The notes: generated by a model from the letters alone, not told the origin. 64,000 nt of DNA from an uncultured delta proteobacterium (GCA_963745035.1 CAVUVW010000013.1:608001-672000); one strand, 5' to 3'. Shown: positions 1-16,600, counted from the first letter of the stretch. Numbers and translations: made by a program.

Positions 1-593
1 ACGGCGAGATCGATTTCCGGCCCGCCGGGATATCCCTGCACGAGATTGAATTTCGTGCCGATCACTTCTTCGAACAGCTTCGGCAAATAATAGGCGGAGT
101 CCGAAGTCCCCTGCGCGCCGCAGCGCGGCGGCTCTTTGGCGTTGCGCACGTCTTCCATCGTTTTGTACGGCGTGTCGGCGCGCATGTACATCTGCGACTC
201 GCCCTGCACCGGAGAGCCGATCCAGACGAACTTTGCCCAGTCGTATTGCGCCTCCTTGCGCCCGACGAGCTGGTCGAAATACAAAGTCGGCACAATTGAG
301 CCGATCAGGCTCAAGCCGTCCGCTTTGGTCGTTTTGTAAACGTAATTTGCCGCGATCATGTGTCCGGCGCCGGGCATATTTTGCACGACGACATCCGGCC
401 TTCCGGGTATGTGCTTGTTCATATGGGTCGCGAGAATCCGCCCCCATTGATCGTACAATGCCCCGGGCGTCGTGCCGATATAGACGGTAATGGTCTTGCC
501 TTTGTAGAAATCGGATTGCGCCGCTACCGGAGCCACCCAAATCAATGCGCCTAATAATACGCCCCATGAAAACCAATTACTGGGAAATTTCAT
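1..593 (-). CDS. Tripartite tricarboxylate transporter substrate-binding protein (Bug/TctC family), 3' part outside window
   Basis: Not in the ORF track. Hand translation from ATG at 593 gives MKFPSNWFSWGVLLGALIWVAPVAAQSDFYKGKTITVYIGTTPGALYDQWGRILATHMNKHIPGRPDVVVQNMPGAG: a signal peptide plus the FYKGKTI and QNMPGAG motifs of Bug/TctC. GAGGAG RBS upstream. Confidence 0.85.
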   Translation of the reverse strand, partial: MKFPSNWFSWGVLLGALIWVAPVAAQSDFYKGKTITVYIGTTPGALYDQWGRILATHMNKHIPGRPDVVVQNMPGAGHMIAANYVYKTTKADGLSLIGSIVPTLYFDQLVGRKEAQYDWAKFVWIGSPVQGESQMYMRADTPYKTMEDVRNAKEPPRCGAQGTSDSAYYLPKLFEEVIGTKFNLVQGYPGGPEIDLA

Positions 594-774
594 AGTCTCT
601 CCTCGCACGAAGTTGATGGATAATTTCGTATCGCACGGAGCTGGCGACCGTCAAGCACCTCATCAGGGATTCCCATAAGCGAGGACGCATTGATCCGTCG
701 CGCTCCGACAGCTCGGATCGACGTGAATGACTCTCACGAGCCGAAAGTGAAAACACGATTTGTTCCGAACGGCG

Positions 775-1215
775 CTAACGCGCAAGCAAGCTGTCGATCG
801 ACAGCGCGCCCGCTCCGCCAAACACCAGCGCGACCGCCATCAGGAACAACGCAAGTGTGTATTCGATGCCGCTGCCCCTGCCTGGACCCTGGGCAAGGAA
901 GAAGCCGTTGCTCCAGTGGCTCAGGAACAACGCAAAGGCGATAAAAACCGCCAGGCAAAACGCCACCGGCCTGACCAAGAAACCGAGAGTGAACGAGACT
1001 ACGGCCATTAGTTCGATGACCAGAGCGAAAACTCCCATCGCTACGGGAATATGATACTTATCCCGCCAGTTGGCGACTTGGGCTTTAGGCCCTTTGCCGC
1101 CGTGCCAGCCGAACGCGTGCTGCGTGCCGTGCATAAAAAAAGTCAGCGCGAGACCGAATCGCAGGAAGACGTAGGAAAACGAGTCGTCCGTTTGAAATAG
1201 CCAATCCACTTTCAC
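775..1215 (-). CDS. DoxX family membrane protein
   Basis: 146 aa with 4 hydrophobic segments; LRFGLALTFFMHGTQH, GIEY and GAGALSID motifs typical of DoxX; GGAGG RBS before GTG. Confidence 0.85.
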   Translation of the reverse strand: MKVDWLFQTDDSFSYVFLRFGLALTFFMHGTQHAFGWHGGKGPKAQVANWRDKYHIPVAMGVFALVIELMAVVSFTLGFLVRPVAFCLAVFIAFALFLSHWSNGFFLAQGPGRGSGIEYTLALFLMAVALVFGGAGALSIDSLLAR

Positions 1216-1683
1216 CTCCCAAAGCCCGCGATGATCCTCGCGCGCCGAATTTTCGCAACAAGTATCACGCGTCCCAGTCCGGCGGCAAGCAGCGCTCAGA
1301 CGATCTCAGGGCCCGTAGGCGCTTGGCTTCGCGAATAGAGACGATTCCGGTCGGCCGGCGTATTCAGATAAATCCGCCGCCATGGACAAGCAATCCACAG
1401 AGGAAAGGGATCGCGAGTCTGTAGCTTTCTGAGTTGATGCGCCTTAAATGAATTTTGGCGCACGGCCTCAGTTGGGATCAGGGCAACATTTGAATCTGTA
1501 AACTCAGATTCAGCGCAGCGTGAAGTAGAAAAAAAAGGAGCCAGGGAAAAGAAGAAAGGGGGCGAGGAGAGAAGTGGAGGGACAACTGCGGAGAGTTCTT
1601 ACCGGGGAAATCCGAGTGCTAGGAGAGGTCACGCAACGATGGAACTCGAAGAGCCGGCAGGAAGGCCAGTGGATTGGGAAGGA

Positions 1684-2634
1684 TCAAAAAGCCGGGATTC
1701 TTTTAGCGCGCATGGACTCGATCGTCATTCTTAAGCCCTGTTCGACCTGGATATGGGGGCTGTAGCCAAGAATGCGGTTCGCCAAGGAAATATCAGCCAA
1801 TGAGTGCCGCACATCGCCCGGTTTCGCCGCGACGTGATTCACGATGGCCGCGACGCTCAACATACGCTCGAGCAATCGCACGAGATCGTTTAGGCTGATG
1901 CGCTCACCGCAGCCTATATTGAGGCAAGTTCCGGCGGCATGTCCCGACTGCATGGCCAACAGATTCGCCTCGACTACGTTTTCCACATAGGTAAAATCGC
2001 GCGATTGTTCGCCGTTCCCGTAGATCGTGATGGGTTGTCCTGCCAAAAGCGCGCTTATGAATTTCGGTATGACAGCAGAATACTCTGAATAGGGATCTTG
2101 ATCAGGTCCAAAGACGTTGAAATATCTCAAACTGACCGTCTCCAATCCATAAAGATCTTGATACAGTTTGCAGTAACGCTCACCGACCAACTTTTGCAAG
2201 GCATAGGGGGAAAGCGGATTCCAACACATCGCCTCGGTCTTCGGAAGAACCTCCGTATCCCCGTATGCAGAGGACGAAGCTGCGTAGACAAACCGACGAA
2301 CCGCGGCCCTTCGGCAGCTCTCCAAAAGGTTCAGCGTCGCCGTCACATTCGCGCGGTTCGTTCCGGTCGGATCGAGCACGGATCGCTGCACGGACGGAAT
2401 TGCGGCTTGATGGAAAACGCAATGGATGCCGTTGACCACCGCGTCGCAAAACAAAGGATCCGACAAGTCTCCGTTGATGAACTCTATGGAGCCGCGCAGG
2501 TCCTCCAGGCGAGCCAGTTGACCGGTGGAAATATTATCCACGACCCGAACCGTGGCGCCTTCTCTGACCAGGCGTCGTACAAGGTGAGAGCCTATAAACC
2601 CGGCGCCGCCAGTCACTAAGTAGCGATCAGACAT
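1684..2634 (-). CDS. NAD-dependent nucleotide-sugar epimerase/dehydratase (WbpP/GalE-like extended SDR)
   Basis: VTGGAGFIGS Rossmann motif, ASSSAYG, YALQK (YxxxK), RYFNVFGP, GEQSRDFTYV. Starts 6 nt after the NRPS stop. Confidence 0.92.
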   Translation of the reverse strand: MSDRYLVTGGAGFIGSHLVRRLVREGATVRVVDNISTGQLARLEDLRGSIEFINGDLSDPLFCDAVVNGIHCVFHQAAIPSVQRSVLDPTGTNRANVTATLNLLESCRRAAVRRFVYAASSSAYGDTEVLPKTEAMCWNPLSPYALQKLVGERYCKLYQDLYGLETVSLRYFNVFGPDQDPYSEYSAVIPKFISALLAGQPITIYGNGEQSRDFTYVENVVEANLLAMQSGHAAGTCLNIGCGERISLNDLVRLLERMLSVAAIVNHVAAKPGDVRHSLADISLANRILGYSPHIQVEQGLRMTIESMRAKRIPAF

Positions 2635-2640
2635 TGAAGC

Positions 2641-5600
2641 TTAGAAAACGCGAGACAGGCTGACCAGAGAATTTAGAGGCTCGCTGGTTTCGCTATCGAG
2701 CGCTCGGATGTCTTGGACGCATACAGGCGGCGCCCCGTTGTTGTTCAGCTCAACCTCACGTAAACATTCATTGAGACATTCGGCAACATCCCTGATATGT
2801 CCCTCGTGAAACATAGTTAAATGATCGCCGGGGACTTCGTGAATTTCCAATCCGCCGGTAAACATTCCCGTCCAACCACGGGTCGGATCATCGTCATAGC
2901 CCGCCTTCGGCTCTCGAGAACGCAATAGAACGCCGCGGCCTGTGTGTATTTCCGCGGCATGGTTCCGAAATGCAAAATCATAAGCCCAGGTCAGATTTGA
3001 AGCTGTCACGGCGACCGGAGTGCCGAGGAAAAAAGACCTATGGAAAATGCTCCACCAAATGCGTCGGAGCGGCAGAGATGCGAAGCTCGACGCTCTTTTA
3101 ATTGCAAAAGCGGCATACCTTAGCCGTCCCTGTAACCTTGGTTTTTTAAACGCCCTCCAGTGAGCCCGTAACCGTTGGAAAAGCGCGAGACTTCTTGACC
3201 GCGGGCCGTACGTGTCGAGCAAGGCGAGCAAGCCGATTTTTTCGCCCTCAGAATGGAGCAGTTGCGCCATCTCGAATGCAATCGTACCTCCGGATGAATA
3301 CCCGATAAGATGATAGGGTCCCTTTGGCTGAACCGTGCGAATGGCCTGAACGTAATTTGTCGCCATTTCTTTCAGAGTAACCGGCATAATCTCTTTTTCA
3401 AACATTCCCGAGAACGAAAGTCCATAGACGGGATATTGGGCATCGAGGTAGGAGACAAAGCCATATTCCACGCCAATGGTAAACACGGGCGGCTTGGATC
3501 CAGCGGATCTAACTTCAACCAGGCAGTTTCTTGGCGGAATCCAGCCCTCCGCGCGAATGACGTCCGCAAGTCGTTCGACCGTGGGAGCAGAAAAGATCGC
3601 GGTAATTGGAAGATCCACTCCTAAATGTCGCTTGATTTCCGCAACTACCCTGACTGTATTCAGTGAGTGCCCGCCCAACCCGAAGAAATTGTCCATTACA
3701 CTTACGCGACGGACATTTAAGACAGACTGCCAAATCTGGGCGAGTTGAAATTCGAGCCGATCACGGGGCGCGACAAAAGTCTTCGGCGAATCGCACTCGT
3801 CCGGACCGGGCAGCGGCAGCGCCTGGCGATTCACCTTGCCGCCGGGAGCGACAGGCAAGCCTTCAAGGAAAACAAACGCTGAAGGCACCATATAATCCGG
3901 GAGTTTTCGCGCAAGAAAGTTTCGCAGCTCACCGCGATCGCAGGCGACATTCGGATGAGTGACCAGATAGGCAACGAGCCGCATATCTTCCGGCGCGTAC
4001 TCCCTTCCGATCACAAGCACCTGCCTCACGTCCGGGTGCTCCATCAGATTTGCTTCGATTTCTCCCGGTTCGATTCGATGTCCGCGAATCTTTAGCTGCT
4101 GATCAATTCTCCCCAGGCATTCTATCGTTCCGTCGCCGAGGTGCCTGGCCCAATCCCCAGTCTTGAACAATCTTTCTCCGGAATCGCCGCTGTACGGATT
4201 CGGAACAAATCTTTGAGTCGTCAGCTCCGGACGTTTCAGGTAGCCCCGCGCAACCCCGTGTCCGCCGATACAAAGCTCGCCCGGTATACCCACCGGAACC
4301 GGCTGCATGTTGGCGTCGACGATATAGACCTGCGTATTGGCGATCGGTACCCCGATGGATATGACCCCGCAGTTCGCTGCGACTTGGCCGGCCGTGGACC
4401 ATACCGTCGTTTCCGTCGGCCCATAGAGATTCCAAACCGTGTTGCCGCCCTCGAGCAAGCTGTTGGCGAGATCTAAACTCAATGATTCGCCGCCACATAA
4501 CACTTTGAACCCTTTCGTACCTTTCCAGCCGGCCTCCACGAGCATCCGCCACGTTGTGGGTGTCGCCTGCATCATCGTCGCGCCCGAGGATTCGATCTGC
4601 CGCGCGAGCCTGCTGCCGTCGGCCGCCGCTTCTCTGGTGGTGACCACAACCCGTGCGCCGACACTCAGAGGCAGAAAAATCTCGAGCGCCGCGATATCGA
4701 AGGATATGGTGGTCACGGATAGCAAGACATCCGTCTCCGATATGCCGGGATTGTTCCTCATGGAATGGAGAAAATTGGCGAGCGAGCGATGTTCGATCTC
4801 GACGCCCTTGGGCTTGCCGGTCGATCCCGACGTGTAGATGACGTAGGCGAGCGAGCTCGGAGGCGGTGCGAGGTAGCTTTCTGCGGACTCGGAACTTACC
4901 GCGCTTGCCAGGCTGTCCAAGCAGAGCGTGAGTTGCCCATTGTCCGGCAAGCGTTCTAAAAGCCTTTCCTGGGTGAGCAGGATCCGCAGCCCGCTGTCCT
5001 CGAGCATAAATTGAATCCGCTCCTGAGGATAGCCGGGATCGATGGGCACATAAGCCCCGCCCGCCTTGAGCACTCCCAAAAGACCGGCAATGAGCTCGAT
5101 CGATCGCTCCGTGCACAAACCTACGAGAACACCGGGTTTGACCCCCATCGCTCGCAACCGGCAAGCGATTTGGTCGGTGCGCCGATTGAGTTCAGCGTAC
5201 GTGAGCTGCTGCTCTCCAAACACAACCGCGATGGAGTCCGGAGTTCTCCGCGCCTGCTCCTCGAATAATTCATGGACGCACTTTTGCGGAAACGCCGAGC
5301 CGGTGCTGTTCCACTGGCGCAGTAGCTGATTTTTCTCGCCCTCGGACAATATCGGAATTGTGGCAATCGAGTCGTTCGGATTCCCCGCCACGGCCTCGAG
5401 CAGCCGGTGATAGTGCCGCAGCATGCGCTTGACGGTCTCCGGCTTATAGAGGTCGGTGTTATAACTGATCAGGATCTTGCGCGTTACTTGCGGATCGACG
5501 GTGACGCCGATATCGAATTGCGACGCCGATTGATCGATCTCGAACGGCATCCAGGAGAGACCCTGCAAGTCGATCTTCTCCGCGGAGATGCTTTGAAAAT

Positions 5601-8600
5601 TGAAGAGCACCTGGATGAGCGGCGAGCGGCTCGGATCGCGACCAGACTCCATTTCCTTGACGACCGTTTCGAACGGCACATCGCCGTGGTCAAAGGCATC
5701 GAGCACAGTGTCACGCATTCGTCTTAGAACACGCCGAAAAGAGAGATCGCCCGAAAAGTCCGTGCGCAGCACCAGAATATTGATGAAGGTTCCAATCACA
5801 CTTTCCCATTCGAGCCGGTTTCGATTGGCAACAGGGGTGCCGATGCCAATGTCCCGTTGTCCCGAATACCGATGCAGCAGCGCCTTAAACGCGGCCAGAA
5901 AGAGCATGTATAACGTCGCATTCTCCTGCGCGGCTTGCTTCCTCAGATTTTCTACCAACTCGGCGGAGAGAGTCAGCGACTCGTAGCTTCCTCGGAAGGT
6001 TTGGATCGACGGCCGGGGATAATCCGTGGGGAGAGCCAGAGGTTGTAGGCCGGCGAGTTGCTTCTTCCAGTAGGCCAGTTGAGCATCTATCCGCCTTCCC
6101 GTGAGCCACTGATCTTGCCACATCGTGAAATCCCCGTACTGCGTCTGTGTTCCGTTCACGGCCAACGAGGACGATTCACAAAATCCGTTATAGAGCGAAC
6201 TCAGCTCGCGCGCGATAACGCCCAAAGACCATTGATCGGAAATCACGTGGTGCATATTCAGGAGCAAGACGTGGTCTTCTTCGGACAGGTGAAGCAATAA
6301 CACTCGTATTAAAGCGCCGTTTTCGAGGTCAAACGGACGACGCGCCTCGTCGCTCAAGAGTTGCTTTGCCGCGCTCAAACGATCCCCTTCGGGCATATTC
6401 CCAAGATCGATTTCCGGCATGTCCAACGTCAGCGTCGGCGAGATGGTCTGAACCGGCTCCCCTCCCCTGCTTGTGAAATTTGCTCGCAGGGATTCATGCC
6501 GCCGGATCAATTCCTCCAAGCTCCGATTCAGCGTTTCTTTGCGGAGCTGCCCGGCAAAACGGATGGGCACGGCGATATTGTACGCTGCGCTTTGCGGCGC
6601 GAGCTGATGCATGTACCAAATGCGCGCTTGCGATTGTGAAACGGGCGCTTCGTTTCCGCGCGACGAAAATGAAATGGGAGCTATCTCGGCGGCCGGCTCC
6701 TTCGACTGCAATGCCTCGTCGACACGCTCGGCAAACTGCGCCAAAACCGGCGCTTCAAAGATCACTCGCAGGGGAATCTCGATGGCCCATTCTTTACGAA
6801 CTCGAGACACGAGTTGAGCGGCAAGCAGAGACTGCCCGCCAAGTTCAAAAAAATGATCGCGCCTGCTTACGGCGTCCACGCCCAACAGCCGCATCCATAG
6901 ATCTGCGATGCGAATTTCCGTCGACGTCTCCGGAGCCTCGATCGGTCGGCCCGCCAAAGCCGAACACTTATCCGGATTGGGCAAAGCACGGCGGTCCACC
7001 TTGCCGCCGTGGGTTCGAGGCAAGGAATCCAGCGCCAGAATCGTCGTCGGCACCATGTATTCAGGGAGCTTCTTATTTACAAAATTCTTCACTTCCGTCA
7101 CGTTCAGCATGGCGCCTTGCTTGGGCACGAGATAAGCTACCAGTTGGTGGCGGGCGGAGTCGCCGTTCTGTGTCACCGTTGCGTCCTGGACCAGTGGATG
7201 CGCTTTGAGAACGACTTCGATTCCGTCGAGCTCTACACGAAAGCCTCGTATTTTTACTTGCCGGTCGAATCTCCCGAGGTACTCGAGGTTGCCATCGTCC
7301 CGCCAGCGAACCAGATCCCCGGTTCTGAATAAGCGGGAATTGGCGTCTTCTGCAAAGGGGTTGCGAATGAATTTGTCGGCCGTCAATACCGGTTGTTTCA
7401 CGTATCCGCGAGCAACCCCCGCGCCGCCGATGTACAATTCTCCGGGGACTCCGGTCGGCACCGGCGCCAAACTCGAGTCCAGCACATACGTTTGCGCATG
7501 GGGCAGAGGCGCGCCGATGGGAACCTCTTGGGAAGCAGCCCTCTTTGTAGGATAGTCGGTCAAGTCATAGACGGTCGCAGTGACCGTGGTTTCGGTAGGT
7601 CCATAGGTGTTGAGTAATTTCAGCGTCGGTCTGACACACGACTGCCATAATGCGACTCGCTCGGCATTGGCTTTTTCCCCGCCGATGATGACCAGGCGTA
7701 CCGAACCGGGCACCGCCAGGTGATCTGCAAACATATCGGCCACGAGGTCATGCCAATAGGCAGTCGGCAGATCGAGGATGGTGACGCCGTAATCCGCGCA
7801 CCCATCGAGGAAGTTCTTGGCCGACTCCAGCATGGCGTCGGTTCGGAGAACAAGCGTGGCGCCGCGCATCAAACAAGGAAAAATCTCTTCCACCGAAGTG
7901 TCGAAGGCGGCGGAAGCGAACTGAAGGACCCGGTCCTCGTGAACTAGTCCAAACACCCGTGCTGCCTGAGCGGCAAAATTCATCAAATTCTTGTGCGTAA
8001 TCTCGACGCCCTTGGGAGCTCCGGTCGACCCGGACGTATAGATCACATACGCGAGATCATCTCCGGAAACTCCTGAGTCGATGTTCTCCACACTCTCGCC
8101 GCTGATCGCCGGCTCCGAGGGGTCCAGTGCAATCGCCTCGGGGCCGTCTAGCGGTATGCGGCTCAACAGCTGCCCATGCGTGAGCACTATCGAAGCTCCC
8201 GCATTCGTCAAAATGAATTTCACCCATTCTCTCGAATAGTCTGGATGAATCGGGACATAAGCCGCCCCTGCTTTGAGAATGCCCAACTGGCCGACAATCA
8301 TTTCCAGCGAGCGCTCGACATACAGCCCAACCAGCGTCTTCGGTCCGACCCCGCGTTTTCGTAAATGGTGTGCCACTTGATTGGCGCGACGATTCAACTC
8401 TCCGTAAGACAGCCGCTCGTCGTTGAACACGACGGCGACTGCATCGGGTCGCGTCTTGGCTTGCTCTTCGATCAAGTAGTGAATACAGCGCTCGTCGAGG
8501 GCTTCAGCTTTCGGCCTGCTCGTCTCCAGAATCTGCTTGACCTCCTCCGACGAGGTTAGGCTCAAAAGGGCCAGCGGGCGAGCCGGATCAGTCAGATACG

Positions 8601-9957
8601 CGTCCACGACGCGCGAAAAATGGGAAATCAATCGCTGGCAATCCTGTTCGGCGAACACATCCCGATGCAAATCGAAATCGACCGACAGGCTCGTTACCGA
8701 GCCGAAATCGCTGATCTGGATCGTCAGTGCATCGTCTCCATGTCCGTTGTGCACCCACTGTGGTAAAGCCGCCATGCCCGCAAAGTTCGAGAACGACCGG
8801 GTGTGATAGTTAAGGACGACGTCGTACAACCTCCTGAAATACGGGTTGGCAACCGCGCACTGACCGTGTCGGGCTGCCTTGAACACTTCTGTTTTGACCT
8901 TGCCGATGAACGAAACAAACGTTTCCTCGTCGGACACTTCCAAGCGGACCGGAAGAACTTCGGAGAAAAATCCGATCGTCTGTTTGAACTCTTTGGATCG
9001 GCGATTATGAAATGGGATGCCGATGGTATATGTCGACTGTCTATTGAGACAGTAAAGATAACCGACGAGAATCGCGGCGAAGGTTTCGAGGAGAAACGCC
9101 TCTTCCGACCCCGACTTCGAGGCCGCGGCCATCGATCTCAGCCTGCTCGTGCGCTCGGCACCAAGCTCCCAAGAGACGCGGCGAACCCGCGTTGTCGCCT
9201 TGGCGGGGGTTTTGCCGTAAAAATGAATCTGTTCTCCGCCCGCGACGAAGAATTGCTTCCAATACGCCTCCGCGCGCCGATGACGCGCGGATTCACGATG
9301 ACTTCTCTCGTGAGCGACATAGTCGGCATAGGAGAACAAGCTCACATACTCCGGGAGTTGCCCCTGAAGCGAGCGGCTGTAGAACTCAGCCATACGGTGG
9401 TAAATCAACTCGAAAGACCAGCCGTCGCAGATCATATGATGGACGTTCAAATACCAGATGAACTCACTTTCCGACAATTGGATCAGCGCCGAGTCGAATA
9501 GGCGCTCATGCCATTGAAAGGGAATCTGGCAGCGCTTGTGCATCCAGCTTTTTGCCGTCGTGTGAGGATCCGGCAGCGACGACAGATCAACGACGTTGAG
9601 CTCGCATGGCACGATCGGCACAACCTTCTGTGTCGGAATTCCGTCGCATTCCTTGAGGACAGTCCGAAGTGCGTCACTGGAATTGACCAGGGTTTGAAAA
9701 GCCCTGCCGAAGTGTACCGGGTCGACTTTGCCGCGGATGTTCAGAGCCACGGCCAAGTTATAAATCGGTATCTCGGGAAGCAGGTCTTGCCCCATCCAGA
9801 CCTGCAACTGATTACTTGTCAGGTTCGATTGCTCGTATGCGCTCGTTGTTAGAGTCGCCTCACCGCCCGCAACTCCGCCGTTTCCGGTCACGCTGTGCAG
9901 GAGTCTCTCATTTTTCAGCGACTCGCTTTGCGGCTCAATCACGGATGTGCGGAGCAT
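2641..9957 (-). CDS. Two-module non-ribosomal peptide synthetase, C-A-T-C-A-T-TE
   Basis: C motifs HHMICDG and HHVISDQ; A cores YTSGSTGAPKG and YTSGSTGKPKG, NxYGPTE; carrier motifs FFELGGQS and FFGLGGHS; TE motifs GYSSGG and GDH. Confidence 0.96.
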   Translation of the reverse strand: MLRTSVIEPQSESLKNERLLHSVTGNGGVAGGEATLTTSAYEQSNLTSNQLQVWMGQDLLPEIPIYNLAVALNIRGKVDPVHFGRAFQTLVNSSDALRTVLKECDGIPTQKVVPIVPCELNVVDLSSLPDPHTTAKSWMHKRCQIPFQWHERLFDSALIQLSESEFIWYLNVHHMICDGWSFELIYHRMAEFYSRSLQGQLPEYVSLFSYADYVAHERSHRESARHRRAEAYWKQFFVAGGEQIHFYGKTPAKATTRVRRVSWELGAERTSRLRSMAAASKSGSEEAFLLETFAAILVGYLYCLNRQSTYTIGIPFHNRRSKEFKQTIGFFSEVLPVRLEVSDEETFVSFIGKVKTEVFKAARHGQCAVANPYFRRLYDVVLNYHTRSFSNFAGMAALPQWVHNGHGDDALTIQISDFGSVTSLSVDFDLHRDVFAEQDCQRLISHFSRVVDAYLTDPARPLALLSLTSSEEVKQILETSRPKAEALDERCIHYLIEEQAKTRPDAVAVVFNDERLSYGELNRRANQVAHHLRKRGVGPKTLVGLYVERSLEMIVGQLGILKAGAAYVPIHPDYSREWVKFILTNAGASIVLTHGQLLSRIPLDGPEAIALDPSEPAISGESVENIDSGVSGDDLAYVIYTSGSTGAPKGVEITHKNLMNFAAQAARVFGLVHEDRVLQFASAAFDTSVEEIFPCLMRGATLVLRTDAMLESAKNFLDGCADYGVTILDLPTAYWHDLVADMFADHLAVPGSVRLVIIGGEKANAERVALWQSCVRPTLKLLNTYGPTETTVTATVYDLTDYPTKRAASQEVPIGAPLPHAQTYVLDSSLAPVPTGVPGELYIGGAGVARGYVKQPVLTADKFIRNPFAEDANSRLFRTGDLVRWRDDGNLEYLGRFDRQVKIRGFRVELDGIEVVLKAHPLVQDATVTQNGDSARHQLVAYLVPKQGAMLNVTEVKNFVNKKLPEYMVPTTILALDSLPRTHGGKVDRRALPNPDKCSALAGRPIEAPETSTEIRIADLWMRLLGVDAVSRRDHFFELGGQSLLAAQLVSRVRKEWAIEIPLRVIFEAPVLAQFAERVDEALQSKEPAAEIAPISFSSRGNEAPVSQSQARIWYMHQLAPQSAAYNIAVPIRFAGQLRKETLNRSLEELIRRHESLRANFTSRGGEPVQTISPTLTLDMPEIDLGNMPEGDRLSAAKQLLSDEARRPFDLENGALIRVLLLHLSEEDHVLLLNMHHVISDQWSLGVIARELSSLYNGFCESSSLAVNGTQTQYGDFTMWQDQWLTGRRIDAQLAYWKKQLAGLQPLALPTDYPRPSIQTFRGSYESLTLSAELVENLRKQAAQENATLYMLFLAAFKALLHRYSGQRDIGIGTPVANRNRLEWESVIGTFINILVLRTDFSGDLSFRRVLRRMRDTVLDAFDHGDVPFETVVKEMESGRDPSRSPLIQVLFNFQSISAEKIDLQGLSWMPFEIDQSASQFDIGVTVDPQVTRKILISYNTDLYKPETVKRMLRHYHRLLEAVAGNPNDSIATIPILSEGEKNQLLRQWNSTGSAFPQKCVHELFEEQARRTPDSIAVVFGEQQLTYAELNRRTDQIACRLRAMGVKPGVLVGLCTERSIELIAGLLGVLKAGGAYVPIDPGYPQERIQFMLEDSGLRILLTQERLLERLPDNGQLTLCLDSLASAVSSESAESYLAPPPSSLAYVIYTSGSTGKPKGVEIEHRSLANFLHSMRNNPGISETDVLLSVTTISFDIAALEIFLPLSVGARVVVTTREAAADGSRLARQIESSGATMMQATPTTWRMLVEAGWKGTKGFKVLCGGESLSLDLANSLLEGGNTVWNLYGPTETTVWSTAGQVAANCGVISIGVPIANTQVYIVDANMQPVPVGIPGELCIGGHGVARGYLKRPELTTQRFVPNPYSGDSGERLFKTGDWARHLGDGTIECLGRIDQQLKIRGHRIEPGEIEANLMEHPDVRQVLVIGREYAPEDMRLVAYLVTHPNVACDRGELRNFLARKLPDYMVPSAFVFLEGLPVAPGGKVNRQALPLPGPDECDSPKTFVAPRDRLEFQLAQIWQSVLNVRRVSVMDNFFGLGGHSLNTVRVVAEIKRHLGVDLPITAIFSAPTVERLADVIRAEGWIPPRNCLVEVRSAGSKPPVFTIGVEYGFVSYLDAQYPVYGLSFSGMFEKEIMPVTLKEMATNYVQAIRTVQPKGPYHLIGYSSGGTIAFEMAQLLHSEGEKIGLLALLDTYGPRSRSLALFQRLRAHWRAFKKPRLQGRLRYAAFAIKRASSFASLPLRRIWWSIFHRSFFLGTPVAVTASNLTWAYDFAFRNHAAEIHTGRGVLLRSREPKAGYDDDPTRGWTGMFTGGLEIHEVPGDHLTMFHEGHIRDVAECLNECLREVELNNNGAPPVCVQDIRALDSETSEPLNSLVSLSRVF

Positions 9958-10001
9958 ACCGATCCTTGTCCTTCATTCATCGATGAATTTGGAGCAACCG
10001 A

Positions 10002-11816
10002 TCAACGATACCTTTGCGCTTGGGTTTCATACATCCGGGCATAAATCCGGCTTTCCCTCATGAGCTCTTGATGCGTGCCGAATTCGGCTATCCTGCCGTG
10101 CTTGAGCACGTAAATACGATCGGCCATTTTGACCGTCGAGAGCCGGTGACTGATGAGAATGGCCATCTTACCTTTGACCAGTTGGTGAAACCGCTCGAAA
10201 ACTTCGTACTCCGCCTCCGCATCAAGAGAACTGCTCGGCTCGTCCAATACGATAATGTCACCATCATGTAAGAAAGCGCGCGCGAGGGCGATCTTCTGCC
10301 ATTCTCCCGTGCTCAATTCGTGGCCTCCGTCAAATGACTTGCCCAAAAGCGTATCGTATCCGTCGGTTAGTTGCGCAATCAGCGGATCAACGCCGGCTTT
10401 ACGCGCGGCGGGGTCGAGGTGTTGGCCGTCGGGTGGAACATTGACATTTCCCAACCAGATATTTTCGCGAGCCGTCAGCTCGTAGCGAGGATAGTCTTGA
10501 AAAACAACACTGATGCTGCGTCGCAGATCTTGAGTCGCGTAGTGGCGCAGATCCACCCCGTCCAGGGTGATAGCCCCGCTCGTAGGATCGTAAAGCCGGC
10601 AAAGGAGCTTGGCCAACGTGGTTTTTCCCGCGCCATTCTCTCCGACCAGCGCCACGTGCTCGCCGGGTCGAATGGTCAAAACAATATCTTCCAGGACTCG
10701 ATGGCCATCCCCCGGGTACTGAAAACCAACATGGTCAAAGACGATACCGGACCGAAAGGGTTTCCTGATGACGCTCGGATTTGACGGCTCTTCCAGCTTT
10801 GGTTTGAGATCGAGAAACTTGTAAAGATTGCCGAGGAAGAGATTGTCTTCATAGAGGTCGGCAACGCTGTTAAATACCTGCCGAAGCAAAGCTTGGCCGC
10901 GCTGCACTGCGGCATAAAACATGACCAGATCCCCGAGGCTCATGAGCCCTTGTACGGCGCGCAGCCCGAGATAGCCCAGAAGGGCGAAAGACACGCAGAT
11001 GGCGGCGCTGATGGTGAGTAGTTCCGCAAACGCTTTTTTTGTGGCGATGCGCACCTTCTCGCGTCGCAGTTGGGAACGCAGCCGGCGAAATCGATCCATG
11101 AACAAAGAGCCCACGCCGAAGAGCCGAATTTCTTTGGCATACGCGTCGTTCGTAAGGATCCCATTTAAGTATGCCGCCTGCCGTTCCACGGGAGTTCTGT
11201 GGCGTTCCCATTGATAGTTTTTTCTAGCGTAGCGAATGCGCACGAACACGGCGGGAATGGCGGCGGCCAGAAGCACGAATCCTACAACCCAGTGAAGCCA
11301 AACCAGCAAGATGCCTAACGCAATCACCGAGATGGAATTTTGCGCAAGTTGCCGCAAATTGTTCAGCACCCGGACGGGCCGGACCGGGGCCTCTTGCTGC
11401 GCACGGTGAAGGGTATCGTGATATTGCGGGCTTTCGTAATATTCGAGGTCCACCTCGGTGGACTTAACGTGCAAGATGTCGTACATGCGGTCCGTCAAGA
11501 CGTTCCCATGAACAAAGCTGATGATCCTATCCACCGAGCTGAATATGGCTTCCAGTAACGTCGCCACACCGAGAAGGACGATAAATATGGTAACTGACTG
11601 GAAACCCGAGATACCGTCAGGACCAAGGGCTCCTTGCAGCGAGTCCACTGCCATTTTTACCAGATACAGCGTCAGTAACGGCAGCACACCCTGGACAGCG
11701 ACAACAACGATGCTGGCAAGGCTCCATCGGGGACCGCTATGCCAGATAAAGTGCAGGTAGCGGAACAGGTTGGAACTCAGGTCCGATTTGGTTTTTCCTG
11801 GCATCATCGCAATCAA
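10002..11816 (-). CDS. ABC exporter, fused permease/ATP-binding protein
   Basis: N-terminal TM helices; Walker A GENGAGKTT, signature LSTGEWQK, Walker B IIVLDEP, H-loop ISHRL. Confidence 0.93.
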   Translation of the reverse strand: MIAMMPGKTKSDLSSNLFRYLHFIWHSGPRWSLASIVVVAVQGVLPLLTLYLVKMAVDSLQGALGPDGISGFQSVTIFIVLLGVATLLEAIFSSVDRIISFVHGNVLTDRMYDILHVKSTEVDLEYYESPQYHDTLHRAQQEAPVRPVRVLNNLRQLAQNSISVIALGILLVWLHWVVGFVLLAAAIPAVFVRIRYARKNYQWERHRTPVERQAAYLNGILTNDAYAKEIRLFGVGSLFMDRFRRLRSQLRREKVRIATKKAFAELLTISAAICVSFALLGYLGLRAVQGLMSLGDLVMFYAAVQRGQALLRQVFNSVADLYEDNLFLGNLYKFLDLKPKLEEPSNPSVIRKPFRSGIVFDHVGFQYPGDGHRVLEDIVLTIRPGEHVALVGENGAGKTTLAKLLCRLYDPTSGAITLDGVDLRHYATQDLRRSISVVFQDYPRYELTARENIWLGNVNVPPDGQHLDPAARKAGVDPLIAQLTDGYDTLLGKSFDGGHELSTGEWQKIALARAFLHDGDIIVLDEPSSSLDAEAEYEVFERFHQLVKGKMAILISHRLSTVKMADRIYVLKHGRIAEFGTHQELMRESRIYARMYETQAQRYR

Positions 11817-11904
11817 ATGTGCGCAAACATGACCGTGCGACTTCTCCGCCGGTCAATCGCTAAAAACTGCAATTAACCAGAGGAAACGCATCATGGACGT
11901 CACG

Positions 11905-11920
11905 AGCAACCACAATGCCA
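11905..11920 (-). promoter_or_regulatory. Sigma-54 (-24/-12) promoter of the ABC-NRPS-epimerase operon
   Basis: Minus strand reads TGGCAT-TGTGG-TTGCT, matching TGGCAY-N5-TTGCW about 90 nt upstream of the ABC start. Confidence 0.8.
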
Positions 11921-12011
11921 ATAGTAAAGAAATTCCCCGACACTTGATCCAAGTTGCAGCAGTAGCCGGGTTCAGCGTGCCAACGCCTTCTGTCAATGTT
12001 AAAATTCGTTG

Positions 12012-12024
12012 TAAGTATTTGAAA
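12012..12024. promoter_or_regulatory. Putative IHF site upstream of the sigma-54 promoter
   Basis: TAAGTATTTGAAA, one mismatch to YAANNNNTTGATW, lying between the promoter and the palindrome at 12170-12183. Confidence 0.4.
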
Positions 12025-12332
12025 GGCTGGGGATTTGCGGGCAGGGGTCAAGTGAAGCCCTTGGGCGGGCAAGGCGGGAGCTGTTGGCAGGCTAGCAATC
12101 TGTATCTTTCCAAAACGCGCACAGGCGCGTTCAGTCGCGCTGAATCCTCGGGAATTGTCACGCAGGTCGCGTCAGAGTTGACGTAGGGGCCGAAATAAGC
12201 CAACTCTCTACGCCTTTTTCGTCTCGAGGATCTACCTAGGGCTTGGATTTTTCGGGCCTGGATGGCCGGGCGGGCCAAAGGAATCACGTAAGCGGGCGAC
12301 TTTGGGTGGTTTTCCCGCCGTTCGCCGCTTTG

Positions 12333-13479
12333 CTAACAACTCGCAACCTCCTGATAGAGACTGCCCAGTTGCGATGCGCAATGCCGAACATTGAAGGATT
12401 TGTCGATTTGGTCCCGCAGCGCCGACCCGTCGGTCAGCAACCGATCAGGCTCCTCAAAGTACATTTGCAGACGGTCGGCTATTGCGACCGGATCCCGCTC
12501 GGCAACGAGCCATTTTGCGTGAGCACCGAACAGATAAGGGATATCGGCGTGGACGGTAGAGATCACCGGCATACCCGTTGCCATCATTTGCTGCAACACA
12601 AACGGCGTTCCTTCACGATCGCCATCGGCGGCGGTAACGCTGGGCGCCACAAAAACATGGCAACTCAGCGCCAAGTCACAGAGCTCGCTAAACGGCATGA
12701 ACGGGTAGTGGGTGACGACATCCTCGATGCCCACCCGCCGAATGCTGCTAAACACCGCCTCTTTCGTTTCGCGGTCGCCCGATTTGCCCATTGCGTCGCC
12801 GACAAGCTTCACCTCGAGCTTCACCCCCGCCTTGCGCGCGCGAGCGGCCGCTTCGACAACGTACTGCACGCCTTTTTTCTCGCGAAAGGTCCCGGCAAAA
12901 AGTATCTTCAATGGCTCGCCTGGCCGCAGCGTTCGTGGAGCGGCCGTTAACTGCTCTACATCCACTCCCAACGGATGCACCACGATTTTTTCCGGCGGAC
13001 ATCCCAGCTCTTTGATCTCAGCCGCCATCAGCTGGTCCTAGGGCGAGAATGCGCTCGGCTTGTCGAAAGACCGTCTCGTATTTTTTTGCGCGTTCAGCCC
13101 GGCCACGCTGAAAGATGTCGGCACCGTAAAAGCTCACGATCCACGGCGTCCCGAGAGCTTGATGCATCCGGCAATCCTGCCTCGCTACCGAGCCGAAATG
13201 CGAGTGCAGTACTCGCGGCGCCAATTTTTTGATGCGGTGCCATTCCGTCGGATAATAGCGGGCACCGGAAATCCGCCGCCACGCGCGCCGTGTCAAACTC
13301 AAATTGAACTTCCAGGCGATCAACTCGGGAAATTCCTCGCGGTTCATCAACGCGTCGCACAGAACCACGGGAGTGAAACGCGGCAATGACCGTAAATGAT
13401 CGTACAACCAATTCATCGTTCGGGCGACGAAGCGGTCGCAGCGTTGTAAAGCAATGGGGGCGGCGGCAGTGGCGTTCAT
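12333..13479 (-). pseudogene. GT4 glycosyltransferase (WcaL-like), split by a +1 frameshift near 13029 as sequenced
   Basis: ORF 13018-13479 is the N-half (HSHFG, VSFYGAD). ORF 12333-13028 is the C-half (FAGTFREKKG, PSVTAADGDREGTP). Removing one base joins LALGPA to MAAEIKELGC. Confidence 0.8.
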
Positions 13480-14816
13480 GTTGCCGACTCTCTGGATGTC
13501 CCTTTTTGCAGTCTAACCGTCCAGGCAGACCGGGAGCATAGCCGCACGTAAAGCGAACAATCGCTCGGACGAGGGATGAGCTCCGTCCATGAAACTCCGG
13601 TTTCCCGGAGGTAAAACCAAGTCAACATCCCCGAAAGGATCGTATAAGAAATCGACGAGGCGATGGCCGCTCCCGCCAGACCCATCGACGGAACCAGCGC
13701 GAAATTGCCAATGATGTTAACCACGGCGGCTACGCCCGAGGCCCAAACAGTATAACCGGGCTTCTCGCGTGCGAGAACCTCGGCGACCAGAACCTTTCCG
13801 ACGCTGAGAGTAAAGATTCCCGGAAGCAGCCAGCGCATTGGCGTCACCACCGGCGCAAAGGCGGACGAGTACAGGAGCTCGACAAAAAAGTCGGCGACGG
13901 CGAACACAACTAGACAGCCGGCGCCTACCCATATAGCGACGTGCCGCGCGACCACCGCGGCAAGTTTCGGGTCGCGGCGCGGCGTATTGGTCAGGTGCGG
14001 CAACAATACGGTGCCGACCGTGCCGGACAAAAACCACAGTCGTTCAACGACTGCAGCCGCGATTACGTAAAATCCCAGTTCTTCTCTGGAAAGAAACGCG
14101 GCGATGAAAAATCCGTCGACTCGGTAGTTGAGATAAGCGGCGATGGTCCCGGCGTGAGCCGGCAATGCAAACCGCATTGCCTTTTTCCAGAGCGTCCGAT
14201 CTATGGCCGCCTTGCCCCACACGTCGATGCGTCGAAACAGCGCGATGACGCAGACCACGGCCGCGGCCTGCAAGATGATGTCCGCCCAAAGCGCGCCGAT
14301 GACGTGCAGGCCGAGCCCCCAGACCAGAACCGCAGTCAGCAGCAGCGAACCGACCCGCACCGACGTTTCCACAACATTCAAAAGAACGATTTGGTTCATC
14401 CCGCGCAGCAGCGCCAGCCAGTAATCGATGAGCACCTTGAGGGGCACCAGGGACAGAGGCAGGACGTAAAGCCAATACGGAATCGTCGTGAGCGCCGTCA
14501 ATCCCGGGGCTCCAATCGCCAGGAAGCCCAAGCCAAGCACCCAGGTCACCGCTCCAACCCCGAAGGCGAGCAGCACCGAATGCCAAAGCAGCGCCCGGCA
14601 TGCCGCCCGATCCAAGCCCGCATAGACCGCATTGGCCTGTTCAAACCCGAGCCGGCCAAGGGTGATCGCCAACTCGGGGACAAGAAACATGAGCGCGAAC
14701 AAGCCGCGTCCGTCAGGCCCCAAGCCGCGCGCCAGGATTACGGACGAGAGCAGCCGGAACGCCATCCCCGATAGCCGGCCCGCCATGGTAATAGCGATGT
14801 TTCGCTTCAGGTCCAT
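13476..14816 (-). CDS. wzx: Oligosaccharide flippase (Wzx/MOP family)
   Basis: Multi-pass membrane protein with LARGLGPDGRG, YLNYRVD and GLAGAAIASSISY. Start taken at MDLKRN (track ORF starts at 14825). Confidence 0.85.
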   Translation of the reverse strand: MDLKRNIAITMAGRLSGMAFRLLSSVILARGLGPDGRGLFALMFLVPELAITLGRLGFEQANAVYAGLDRAACRALLWHSVLLAFGVGAVTWVLGLGFLAIGAPGLTALTTIPYWLYVLPLSLVPLKVLIDYWLALLRGMNQIVLLNVVETSVRVGSLLLTAVLVWGLGLHVIGALWADIILQAAAVVCVIALFRRIDVWGKAAIDRTLWKKAMRFALPAHAGTIAAYLNYRVDGFFIAAFLSREELGFYVIAAAVVERLWFLSGTVGTVLLPHLTNTPRRDPKLAAVVARHVAIWVGAGCLVVFAVADFFVELLYSSAFAPVVTPMRWLLPGIFTLSVGKVLVAEVLAREKPGYTVWASGVAAVVNIIGNFALVPSMGLAGAAIASSISYTILSGMLTWFYLRETGVSWTELIPRPSDCSLYVRLCSRSAWTVRLQKGTSRESAT

Positions 14817-16600
14817 CGGTCCCACCGAAAAATCAACATATCCTCCGCGCCATCCACATCGTGAATCTGAAAATTGCGCTCGATGAATGCCGAAATATCA
14901 GCAGGCACCGAACGTTTATTGTGGAAGCGATTGCGCTCGATGACGAGCCAGCCCGACGAATATTTGCCGATTAGTTCCCGCAAATCTTTGAGGTCGACGA
15001 CAATCACGGCCGCTGCCGTGTACTCGGTCCGGCTGGTTTTCCAATTATAGCGCGCTTTCGCGAAGTGATCATCCAATTCGTTATTGTTCAACGAATAGAG
15101 CGGTCTTGGCGGCCCGTAGTACTTCGCCAAAAGCGGCACCGATGTCATAATGACATCGCCCTGCCGAGCTTTCTCGGCAATGTACCGCATGGCGGTTCTC
15201 CAGTTGTTGTGTTGCACACCGGCGAACTGACCGGCGTTGATATACGGGGTTTGAACGCTTTCGCGCAGTTCCGGCGCTCCATAGACAATCACCAGCATCG
15301 TTGCTCCACCGACGCCTCCCACCAGCACCCGCGTCATGACAGGCCGGGAGGAACGCGCCAGCAAACCGGATATCCATTCCCGCAATTGCGAAATCAGACT
15401 CGCCAATCCCATTCCTGAAAGGAGGAACAGCAAGGGGAACAGATGAAACACATACCGCTGGTTTTTCCACGCGATAAAGAGACTGTGAATGAGGAAAGGC
15501 GCTGCAAAGCAAACGATCAAGTAAAAGGCAGGCTTTGGATTGCGCAACCAAGCCAACCCACCCAAAATTACCGCGGCGACGGAAATGAAGGGAATATATC
15601 TTCTGAGCACGGCAATATAATGCTGCCACTCCTGAACGCCGCTTTGGGCCCATGCGGGCGCATAGTGCATGAAGCTCACATACCTCGCGATCCCCCCGGA
15701 AACGTATAGATGGATAAGGGCGAGCGCCACGCCGGCGCCGATCACAAGCGTCCAGAAAACGTATCTCGACCGGGCAAGTCGATCGGTCCGCTTGTCGAGC
15801 AAAGCGACGAGCGCCATGCAGAGCACGTACACTATCGGCCCGGCGGCGGCGACGAGAATCAGCTGCTGGAAATGAAGCGCCAACGCAAAGGCTATGGCGG
15901 CAAGGCTCCAGGGCAGCAGTTGCAGCCTCGCCGCCCATTCTTTCAATGCGCCTTTCCCGACGGCCGCTATTCTTCGGCTTTGGAACGAGCCTTCGATCGC
16001 CTGAAAAAATAAATAAATAAAAATGAGATAAAAGAGCTGAAATACGGTGTACATGCGCACTTGGCGGGAAAATGCCACCTGTATTGGGACCACCGCCGTT
16101 AAGAGCGCCGCGACGAGTCCCGCGGCGTTTGACTGCCATTGCCGGCCGATGAAAAACACCAGCGCAACGGTGAGAACGCCGAACAGGACGCTCGTCATTC
16201 GCGCGACGCTTTCAGTCATGCCGAGCAGCTTTCCGGAAAGAGCCACGCTGTATGTGTAGAGAAGAGCTCGCTGGTACGGATAGCCGGAAGGCAGGTTTGG
16301 ATCATCTCCATGGATCAGTTCGTTGGCGGCATAGACATGCAGCATCTCGTCGATACCGAAGCTCGGCCCACCCAAATTCGTCACGCGCAACATGAAGGCA
16401 AACAACAGCACAGCGCCTAACAAGAGCGCCGGGCCTCGGCTTTCGAGCCATTTTTGTGCCCATGTCTGTGGCAGTTCATTTCTCGCCATATCTCGTAAAT
16501 CAAGATTTCTCATGCCCGAAGTTAACCTGGCCCGGAGTAGGTCCATCATATCCATAGCCCGACGAAAGCTTTTCTCGTCAATTTCGGCTGACTGGACCAA
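14807..16600 (-). CDS. GT-C fold membrane glycosyltransferase (GT39/ArnT/PMT-like)
   Basis: LRVTNLGGPSFGIDE first-loop DE motif, ARMTSVLFG, SRQVRMY, many TM helices and a C-terminal periplasmic domain. Exact start uncertain. Confidence 0.8.
   Translation of the reverse strand: MVQSAEIDEKSFRRAMDMMDLLRARLTSGMRNLDLRDMARNELPQTWAQKWLESRGPALLLGAVLLFAFMLRVTNLGGPSFGIDEMLHVYAANELIHGDDPNLPSGYPYQRALLYTYSVALSGKLLGMTESVARMTSVLFGVLTVALVFFIGRQWQSNAAGLVAALLTAVVPIQVAFSRQVRMYTVFQLFYLIFIYLFFQAIEGSFQSRRIAAVGKGALKEWAARLQLLPWSLAAIAFALALHFQQLILVAAAGPIVYVLCMALVALLDKRTDRLARSRYVFWTLVIGAGVALALIHLYVSGGIARYVSFMHYAPAWAQSGVQEWQHYIAVLRRYIPFISVAAVILGGLAWLRNPKPAFYLIVCFAAPFLIHSLFIAWKNQRYVFHLFPLLFLLSGMGLASLISQLREWISGLLARSSRPVMTRVLVGGVGGATMLVIVYGAPELRESVQTPYINAGQFAGVQHNNWRTAMRYIAEKARQGDVIMTSVPLLAKYYGPPRPLYSLNNNELDDHFAKARYNWKTSRTEYTAAAVIVVDLKDLRELIGKYSSGWLVIERNRFHNKRSVPADISAFIERNFQIHDVDGAEDMLIFRWDRWT

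Follow-up and report, generated by a model that had tools for sequence, protein, structure and literature searches.

Glycosylated lipopeptides made by small nonribosomal peptide synthetases (NRPSs) include the mycobacterial glycopeptidolipids, and brabantamide is a rhamnosylated lipodipeptide. The D-alanylation of teichoic acids by DltABCD and the glycylation of Vibrio cholerae lipid A by AlmEFG depend on a stand-alone adenylation enzyme, a small carrier protein and a membrane transferase dedicated to the task; condensation domains and a thioesterase (TE) are lacking. In the lipoinitiated NRPSs, the starter condensation (C) domains of RzmA (PDB 7C1K, 7C1H and 7C1P) and CdaPS1 (4JN3 and 5DU9) take an acyl-CoA or an acyl-acyl carrier protein, according to the available text of PMC7804268. 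The DNA examined here is a stretch of 64,000 nucleotides from an uncultured delta proteobacterium, as labelled (GCA_963745035.1 CAVUVW010000013.1:608001-672000; the whole stretch is called the window), in which a dimodular NRPS gene stands between an exporter gene and a nucleotide-sugar epimerase gene at the end of a polysaccharide locus. The NRPS itself is of a common type, and it is its location, recurrent only in part, that is unusual. What is new is the predicted composition of the synthetase, with a starter-like first C domain (C1), a first adenylation (A) domain that reads as basic (A1), a second that reads as glycine (A2), an intact TE triad and hence a predicted N-acyl-(basic amino acid)-Gly product.

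The domains of the NRPS were assigned using Pfam (Table 1). The 7.3 kb frame was open with all catalytic motifs present, and the domains, including the carrier (T) domains, followed one another in module order, each with its catalytic motif, as in modular (type I) NRPSs. The intact N-terminal C domain recognised by the sequence-only reading from its HHMICDG motif was confirmed, the motif occupying residues 173-179 (window 9421-9441). When C1 alone was compared with solved structures, 47 distinct sequences were matched and the best five were all starter C domains (99.7-111.1 bits). These were the RzmA starter domain (7C1K, 7C1H and 7C1P, 106-111 bits) and CdaPS1 (4JN3 and 5DU9, 100-102 bits), which aligned with C1 near end-to-end, while the next match gave 85.5 bits over the N-terminal lobe only. 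The low-scoring 'surfactin synthetase' entries 8F7F-I, from work on the reprogramming of a condensation domain of an NRPS, are taken by us to represent a SrfA-C domain and not a starter domain. The second C domain (C2) gave the opposite ranking, with 310 bits for the LCL-type domains of Txo1/Txo2 and 51-70 bits for starter domains. From its position before A1 and this ranking of solved structures, C1 is most like a starter (lipoinitiation) C domain.

The residue of C1 aligned to the acyl-length gate (R148 in RzmA, A149 in HolA, M165 in CdaPS1) is Phe, within DGWSF. The gate residue was also Phe in four of the five homologues with an alignable C1, and Val in the homologue from genome G018. In the available text of PMC7804268 a larger side chain at the gate goes with a shorter acyl chain in RzmA and HolA; Phe falls outside the residues assayed there, and hints at a short or medium acyl chain.

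Specificity codes of the A domains were read by hand, with the A4, A5 and A10 core motifs as landmarks, at places presumed to match the GrsA specificity positions. The placement was checked with the A2 domain of the G018 homologue, whose code DILQLGMIWK is identical to the glycine code in the quoted text of PMC12283262. The A2 code of the window NRPS, DILQLGLVWK, matches this code at 8/10 positions, and A2 reads as a glycine domain. The A1 code, DTEDIGTVTK, matches the ornithine code DGEDHGTVTK at 8/10, the lysine code DGEDHGTVVK at 7/10 and the arginine consensus at 8/10 positions (codes as quoted in PMC12283262), and reads as specific for a basic residue (Lys, Orn or Arg). The same code types were present in the G005, G006 and G018 homologues. 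The TE triad of Ser2221 (GYSSG), Asp2248 and His2379 was invariant in all six family members aligned; the lid is long, basic and variable. The nearest solved relatives of the TE, matched over its N-terminal half only, were the skyllamycin (73 bits) and nocardicin (63 bits) TEs, which release free peptides according to the available text of PMC10510592.

A starter-like C1, an A1 read as basic, an A2 read as glycine and an intact TE triad together predict an N-acyl-(Lys/Orn/Arg)-Gly product. An N-acylated dipeptide, as put forward by the sequence-only reading, remains the best interpretation, since starter domains fill the top five places for C1 and C2 is of LCL type. Synthesis would begin with priming of the NRPS by one of the phosphopantetheinyl transferases of the genome, for which three PF01648 matches were found outside the window. 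A1 would then load Lys, Orn or Arg onto the first T domain (T1), and C1, judged by its likeness to the RzmA and CdaPS1 starter domains, would N-acylate the aminoacyl-T1 with an acyl-CoA or acyl-carrier protein supplied in trans. C2 would join the acyl-aminoacyl group to Gly on the second T domain (T2), after which the Ser/Asp/His TE would release N-acyl-(basic amino acid)-Gly by hydrolysis or transfer. The adjacent ABCB-type protein would move the product out of the cytoplasm.

Open reading frame (ORF) calling placed three genes on the minus strand in the order exporter, NRPS, epimerase, with a gap of 44 nt (9958-10001) between exporter and NRPS and of 6 nt (2635-2640) between NRPS and epimerase. 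The coordinates and Pfam assignments agree with the arrangement first read from the sequence, as does a Pfam scan of the window with the claimed co-orientation of the operon with about 50 kb of Wza, Wzc, Wzy, flippase and glycosyltransferase (GT) genes. The operon lies in the variable end of this cluster. Wza, Wzc, Wzy, flippase and an initiating phosphoglycosyl transferase are encoded in one co-oriented cluster, as expected of a Wzx/Wzy-dependent locus, together with more than 12 GT1, GT2 and GT4 genes, a deacetylase, a methyltransferase, SGNH/AlgX-like and AsnB-like genes and several nucleotide-sugar genes (Pfam). The GC content of the operon was not distinct from its surroundings, and a search for repeats marking a mobile insertion around it gave only two A-domain core motifs and short chance pairs. 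A syntenic locus lacking the NRPS was sought as proof of insertion and this approach was dropped for want of a comparator, as a search of 30 other genus genomes gave nothing at E<=1e-40 for the neighbouring PMT_2 gene.

The epimerase gave 221.5 bits with PF01370 and came closest to two solved UDP-HexNAc 4-epimerases, WbgU with 257.8 bits and WbpP with 241.8 bits; against the TviC model it scored 236.5 bits (cut-off 760). Orthologs at 67-76% were found in 10 of the 30 genus genomes, and the surroundings of eight were read, those in G020 and G009 being left out. In five of these eight contexts the ortholog was surrounded by polysaccharide or exosortase genes, with no NRPS among the flanking ORFs scanned. 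The neighbours were two GT1 genes, EpsH and DUF3485 in G015; DUF3485 and TPR proteins in G045; a sigma-54 response regulator and Wza in G004; and GT2, RmlD and RmlB in G018 (contig C4). In G014 the epimerase ortholog and a sigma-54 response regulator were followed directly by an ortholog (67%) of the NusG-like gene that heads the window locus at 60325-60906. The ortholog on contig C73 of G005 stood directly after another NRPS, and those in G043 and G046 had no clear polysaccharide neighbours. In G047, the genome that holds the named relative L016 described below, no epimerase ortholog was found at E<=1e-60, which is uninformative since the completeness of that genome is not given. The polysaccharide or exosortase setting of five of the eight contexts therefore marks the epimerase as one of the polysaccharide genes of this genus. 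With a gene downstream that in relatives forms part of polysaccharide loci, the synthetase lies within the locus and not just at its border. The NRPS and exporter are wedged between a species-specific glycosyltransferase block and a conserved epimerase gene.

Table 1. Positions of the NRPS operon, its domains and the genes of the surrounding locus, numbered from the first nucleotide of the window.
Feature	Position	Strand	Assignment
Epimerase	1684-2634	-	Extended short-chain dehydrogenase/reductase (SDR) nucleotide-sugar 4-epimerase (WbgU/WbpP/TviC-like), 316 amino acids; last gene of operon
NRPS	2641-9957	-	2438 amino acids; C(starter)-A-T-C(LCL)-A-T-TE, Pfam
TE	2758-3510	-	About residues 2150-2400; Pfam Thioesterase 2182-2253
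T2	3556-3747	-	Residues 2071-2134; PP-binding; GGHS site
A2	3835-5265	-	Residues 1565-2041; AMP-binding 1565-1907, AMP-binding_C 1966-2041
C2, LCL-like	5320-6651	-	Residues 1103-1546; Condensation; HHVISDQ
T1	6721-6912	-	Residues 1016-1079; PP-binding; GGQS phosphopantetheine site
A1	7000-8469	-	Residues 497-986; AMP-binding 497-852, AMP-binding_C 913-986
C1, starter type	8527-9822	-	Residues 46-477; Pfam Condensation
Exporter	10002-11816	-	ABCB-type (MsbA/HepA-like) half-transporter, 604 amino acids by longest ORF; likely ATG at 11806
Sigma-54-like -24/-12 element TGGCATTGTGGTTGCT	11905-11920	-	Motif search
Glycosylation block	12333-20350	-	Adjoins operon; species-specific; Pfam and NCBIfam
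GT1, split	12333-13479	-	Glycosylation block
Wzx-like flippase	13476-14825	-	Glycosylation block; first of two Wzx-type flippases, PF13440/PF01943
GT-C/PMT_2	14807-16600	-	Glycosylation block
Protein of 237 amino acids	16578-17291	-	Glycosylation block
ArnC-like GT2	17388-18476	-	Glycosylation block
YdjM	18457-19038	-	Glycosylation block
Flippase-like LPG_synthase_TM, MprF-type	19307-20350	-	Glycosylation block; NCBIfam
Wzx-type flippase, second	24276-25751	-	PF13440/PF01943
Carrier-protein-like ORF, 90 amino acids	29397-29669	-	PP-binding 23.1 bits, cut-off 20.8
Acyl-CoA/AMP ligase	29666-31243	-	Pfam, NCBIfam
Hexapeptide acyltransferase	31177-32001	-	In row with ligase and carrier
AsnB-type amidotransferase	32017-33985	-	In row with acyltransferase
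Locus core	39640-60906	-	Initiating transferase through NusG-like gene
Bac_transf initiating transferase	39640-41106	-	PF02397
Wzy_C protein	50289-51596	-	PF04932
Wzc	55999-58833	-	PF02706/PF13807/PF13614
Wza	58914-59999	-	PF02563
NusG-like gene	60325-60906	-	Heads locus before wza; antiterminator-type

Genome-contig and metagenome scans returned 30 and 22 loci respectively. The architecture of the window NRPS is closely shared only by L016, L046, L047 and L048 (63-73%) and by the genus hits G005, G006 and G018. Co-linear homologues were present in three of the 30 other genus genomes, on contigs G005:C251 (51%), G006:C33 (55%, truncated at the end of its contig) and G018:C8 (46%); the statements on G005 rest on an unpublished genome. 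Public collections added four, L016 (67%, C-terminal part), L047 (63%, full length), L046 (73%, N-terminal) and L048 (69%, C-terminal), the last two coming from one metagenome and possibly being one gene. L016, labelled Candidatus Udaeobacter sp., is the only named close record, and this genus is placed in the Chthoniobacterales, Verrucomicrobiota (NCBI). The host is tentatively taken to be a relative of Udaeobacter from this single named relative. Nine more distant loci, L025, L027, L028, L029, L031, L035, L036 and L042 (31-42%) and L060 (41%), looked like parts of larger assembly lines and were excluded from the counts, only their ORFs being listed.

Scoring how often polysaccharide genes lie around the homologues had been set beforehand as a check on the proposed link to the glycan, and the result was divided. 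In three of the five readable contexts the NRPS touched polysaccharide-type genes: the window, with such genes on both sides; L047, where 4.2 kb downstream and 264 nt upstream could be read and the NRPS was followed by a 75% epimerase ortholog and then an EAL-GGDEF gene; and G005:C251, where 17 kb upstream (13 ORFs) encoded AsnB, a deacetylase, two GT1 enzymes, a flippase, methyltransferases, LPG_synthase_TM, an ArnC-like GT2 and PMT_2, and further NRPS genes followed downstream. No polysaccharide genes stood beside the NRPS in the other two. G018:C8 had aromatic-catabolism, F420 and transport genes over 20 kb on each side and a lone GT4 gene 19 kb away. For the L046/L048 pair, the 4.4 kb upstream held five ORFs assigned to no family, and the 9.8 kb downstream held genes for PilZ, polyphosphate kinase, LigB and an SDR. 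The 2.6 kb upstream of G006:C33 held another NRPS, and L016 had no readable flank. The readable contexts are few and phylogenetically related, so that these counts are not independent.

The GT2 of G005:C251 was 62% alike to that of the window, while copies in 25 of the 30 genus genomes ranged over 55-63%. Since it is no closer to the window gene than these genus-wide copies, simple inherited synteny is not evident, and the G005:C251 block would not simply be the block of the window inherited. The window genome and G005 both hold the ArnC-like GT2 as an extra paralog, a second copy in the genome, and the other genes of the G005:C251 block were 23-42% alike or unmatched. The window NRPS, its homologue in G005:C251 and the related synthetase of G015:C10 each have a GT-C (PMT_2) gene no more than 10 kb away, and the adjacency of NRPS and epimerase recurs in L047 and in G005:C73 (76%). 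The synthetases of G005:C73 (L068/L069) and G015:C10 (L077:1670-8134) have another architecture. Both are of about 2160 amino acids, lack a TE, contain two C domains in tandem and are ordered acyl-AMP-ligase-like A, T, C, starter-like C, A (basic) and T. The former ends directly before its epimerase ortholog, and the latter has an adjoining deacetylase and a PMT-type gene 8.7 kb away, with no export locus.

The exporter is full-length, with transmembrane and nucleotide-binding domains (Pfam ABC_tran). It gave 280.5 bits over residues 51-600 with the NCBIfam MsbA model, where 602 is the cut-off for a lipid A flippase, and 248.6 bits with HepA, also under the cut-off; its best solved relatives were ABCB1 and ABCB4, at about 340 bits (PDB). 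No ortholog was found in the 30 other genus genomes. Because the best full-length match there reached only 41%, comparable with the 40% paralog on contig C1 of its own genome, which is of a kind carried by 24 of the 30 relatives, the exporter is an accessory gene. A fragment of 329 amino acids in G011 was 52% alike and covered the ATPase half only. The exporter was absent from every other NRPS homologue context seen.

The -24/-12 element TGGCATTGTGGTTGCT stands in the gap of 516 nt that separates the exporter gene from the last glycosyltransferase gene, some 100 nt ahead of the likely ATG of the exporter. The number of such motifs in the window was not significant, with four hits (up to one mismatch) against 2.08 expected and at least four in 17 of 100 shuffles. 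The sequence-only reading had noted a promoter of this type on other sub-operons as well, and two of the other three hits were found to precede sub-operons headed by riboswitches: one, at 39389-39404(-), stands 17 nt ahead of a c-di-GMP-I-GGC riboswitch at 39271-39371(-) (RF03167, 60.8 bits) and the other, at 42624-42639(+), stands 43 nt ahead of a c-di-GMP-I riboswitch at 42683-42772(+) (RF01051, 67.8 bits). The upstream elements conform to TGGCAY-N5-TTGCW, and sigma-54 and cyclic di-GMP (c-di-GMP) control appear to be stacked on these two polysaccharide sub-operons. RpoN is encoded in the genome. It is this placement together with RpoN, and not the count, that makes the element convincing, and TGGCATTGTGGTTGCT is probably the sigma-54 promoter of the operon. 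Searches at E<=1 gave no riboswitch or other RNA family in 11600-12400, a 10-mer search allowing one mismatch gave no upstream activator site shared by the four sigma-54-like elements, and a scan of 600-13600 gave counts of sigma-70 promoters and terminators not above those of shuffles. An exact sigma-54-type motif was also seen about 95-110 nt upstream of EAL-GGDEF genes near epimerase orthologs in three relatives (L047:10735-10750(-), L068:13186-13201(+) and L075:5845-5860(+)), where it looks like a conserved promoter.

For positions 1684-11650, a fraction of 0.70-0.91 of the sampled words was present in 16 DNA runs from five studies, labelled as soil, rhizosphere and 'winery' metagenomes, one of which may be the source sample, and the organism or locus seems widespread. 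Four metatranscriptome runs from four studies gave short contigs (150-570 nt, at least 95% alike) that fall on the epimerase, NRPS, exporter and upstream glycosylation genes. One of these (X18, 9907-10104) bridges the junction of exporter and NRPS with 51 and 103 letters on either side. This gives a weak hint that the operon is expressed alongside polysaccharide-gene RNA, as carry-over of DNA is possible and such contigs cannot show a single transcript; no conclusion was drawn from the parts of 1-20000 left uncovered. Given near-identical copies of the stretch in metagenomes from five studies and the matching contigs from soil RNA libraries, the product is probably made in real soils, where Candidatus Udaeobacter is described as being among the most dominant bacterial groups (available text of PMC7343977).

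The interpretation preferred here, to which about an even chance is given, is a free, exported or envelope-associated acyl-dipeptide that is made when the polysaccharide is made and is not a covalent part of the polymer. It is favoured because the NRPS is equipped with an intact TE and, in this genome alone, with an exporter, as is usual where a product is exported free. The exporter, NRPS and epimerase genes would form an accessory unit, probably driven by sigma-54, within which the epimerase would serve the polysaccharide pathway. Attachment of the peptide to the glycan, one of two fates put forward in the sequence-only reading, is considered less likely, and homologues of the NRPS occur without this exporter and outside polysaccharide loci (G018:C8 and L046/L048). 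Polysaccharide loci and NRPS genes are both cargo of the variable genome and may gather in the same plastic regions. Several observations weigh against a free product of this composition. Random abutment on a polysaccharide locus is roughly estimated at 2%, against three of the five contexts found; a GT-C gene lies within 10 kb in three loci; the NRPS and epimerase are separated by only 6 nt, in a pairing that recurs; the promoter type is common to the polysaccharide sub-operons; and the substrate of A1 spans Lys, Orn and Arg in the code comparison.

The strongest alternative, possible though on the unlikely side, is that the acyl-dipeptide is chemically linked to glycan metabolism. The TE could transfer it onto a sugar, in the polymer or in its lipid-linked repeat unit, which would yield a cationic peptide-decorated polysaccharide, or the product could be a glycolipopeptide. 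In the latter variant the MsbA-like exporter would flip the peptide, and the ArnC-like GT2, the flippase-like protein and the GT-C enzyme would glycosylate it in the periplasm. The embedded, co-oriented position of the NRPS argues for such a link, as do its close spacing and recurrent adjacency to the epimerase in L047 and G005:C73 and the G005:C251 homologue, which stands right after GT2, PMT_2 and other polysaccharide genes where simple inheritance is not evident. Further support comes from the presence of only two Wza loci in 7.4 Mb, from polysaccharide deacetylases at 22537-23511 within the locus, which could expose amines, and from the RNA-library contigs, as those matching the operon and those matching the glycosylation genes upstream of it come from the same runs. 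Set against these are the two readable contexts without polysaccharide genes, the small number and relatedness of the contexts, the lack of the exporter in the others, and the ordinary TE triad with its nearest solved relatives among enzymes releasing free peptides (PMC10510592, available text). Among the 49 ORFs of the window (about 150 amino acids or more; Pfam E<=1e-5) there was no MBOAT, AlmG-like or lipid A acyltransferase hit and no other obvious peptidyl-to-sugar transferase. A broader form of the same idea is somewhat more doubtful still, namely that the Cs-A(basic)-T-C-A(Gly)-T-TE family (Cs, starter C) is a module of envelope glycan chemistry of the genus, leading to peptide-decorated polysaccharides or glycolipopeptides. 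The TE would then off-load onto a polyprenyl-linked repeat unit, or the ABC protein would flip the peptide for glycosylation by the trio of GT2, flippase-like and GT-C proteins, and the product would be made under sigma-54 control with the c-di-GMP-gated polysaccharide sub-operons.

An envelope lipid appears improbable. A long-chain N-acyl-(Lys/Orn)-Gly aminolipid, flipped to the outer leaflet or outer membrane, would alter surface charge, and is consistent with an exporter that is most like lipid flippases (MsbA, ABCB4 and ABCB1), with a starter C domain followed by a basic first residue and with the MprF-type flippase-like membrane protein nearby. To our knowledge, it is N-acyltransferases and not NRPSs that make the ornithine, lysine and glycine lipids described so far, and the exporter scored under the MsbA cut-off. 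The bulky Phe at the gate also argues for a shorter chain, if the trend of RzmA and HolA in the available text of PMC7804268 applies. An artefact of a chimeric bin or assembly, or a decaying NRPS remnant, might be suspected from the 28-contig bin with 5.81% contamination, the several split neighbouring genes and another NRPS locus of the genome that is full of stops, and is very improbable given the open frame with its catalytic motifs, the NRPS-epimerase (L047) and polysaccharide-NRPS (G005:C251) junctions on independent contigs, the near-identical stretch in 16 DNA runs and the matching RNA-library contigs.

An acyl donor would be required in trans, and the ligase and carrier-like ORF located about 20 kb upstream of the NRPS, within the locus, form a possible candidate pair. 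In G005:C251 a fused ligase-carrier protein (31% to the window ligase) stands directly after the NRPS homologue, and in G005:C73 the starter-like C domain is preceded, within one protein, by a ligase-like A-T pair; both arrangements fit lipoinitiation from a carrier-bound acyl group. The four-gene row at 29397-33985(-), to which the pair belongs, may acylate or amidate a sugar. The window ligase gave 252.5 bits with TIGR03098 (cut-off 592.35) and the halves of the amidotransferase gave 349.8 and 188.1 bits with TIGR03108 (cut-off 816.9). No match to the EpsH exosortase (PF09721) was found in the genome, which is 92.6% complete. With the ligase under its cut-off and no EpsH match in the genome, the row does not qualify as an exosortase-A accessory cassette.

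Other features of the genome and locus were recorded. The genome contains two Wza and three Bac_transf genes, and two further NRPS loci lie at C13:1555000-1567000 and C13:816000-828000; in the one near 1.56 Mb the Condensation matches are interrupted by many in-frame stops. Frameshifts, either real or assembly indels, divide each of four window genes into two ORFs that adjoin or overlap; these are the AsnB-type amidotransferase (32017-33985) and three GT1/GT4 glycosyltransferases (36041-37379, 47963-49076 and 12333-13479). The only two plus-strand genes of the locus, 42837-45740(+), stand behind a riboswitch and encode a LamG/3-keto-disaccharide-hydrolase-like protein and a beta-helix protein, candidate secreted glycan-modifying enzymes. 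The Wzy gene is flanked by a PGA_cap (CapA-like) protein at 49173-50234(-) and an F390-synthetase/PaaK-like adenylating enzyme at 51833-53212(-).

If the peptide is free, an uncultured lineage would here offer an uncharacterised route to a lipodipeptide that is small and tractable, with a single gene of 7.3 kb that is easy to express; a peptide linked to the glycan would instead extend what may be a new class of peptide-decorated polysaccharides. The wiring of a sigma-54-type promoter followed by a c-di-GMP riboswitch gives concrete conditions under which the product may be sought. No description of an NRPS in a Wzx/Wzy locus, or of a Udaeobacter NRPS, was found in the literature searched, which did not cover subscription journals.

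Compared with known systems, the window resembles the exosortase-A (XrtA/PEP-CTERM) set in having an AMP ligase, a carrier-like ORF and an AsnB-type amidotransferase, and in that epimerase orthologs of relatives adjoin EpsH and DUF3485; it differs in its scores under the cut-offs, the lack of an EpsH match and the 20 kb between the NRPS and the ligase set. The Dlt and Alm systems share adenylation and carrier chemistry with it, and Alm uses glycine as predicted for A2, whereas the window encodes a complete C-A-T-C-A-T-TE line and, among the ORFs scanned, no membrane transferase of the Dlt or Alm kind. Brabantamide and the glycopeptidolipids likewise combine a short NRPS acyl-peptide, glycosyltransferases and a transporter in one cluster, but there the glycosyltransferases are dedicated and cytoplasmic and the cluster compact, while the window holds a full Wzx/Wzy locus and a GT-C type enzyme. 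Also close are the lipoinitiated NRPSs for rhizomide (RzmA), HolA and CDA (CdaPS1), as described in the available text of PMC7804268. Like these, the window NRPS has a C domain before its first A domain; this aligns near end-to-end and with the best scores to the starter domains of RzmA and CdaPS1, retains an intact HHxxxDG, and heads a line terminated by a TE. The window NRPS differs in its place within a polysaccharide locus of an uncultured, verrucomicrobium-like genome, in having Phe at the gate in place of R, A or M, in its low identity to these domains (about 100-111 bits), and in having two modules only with a predicted basic-Gly dipeptide.

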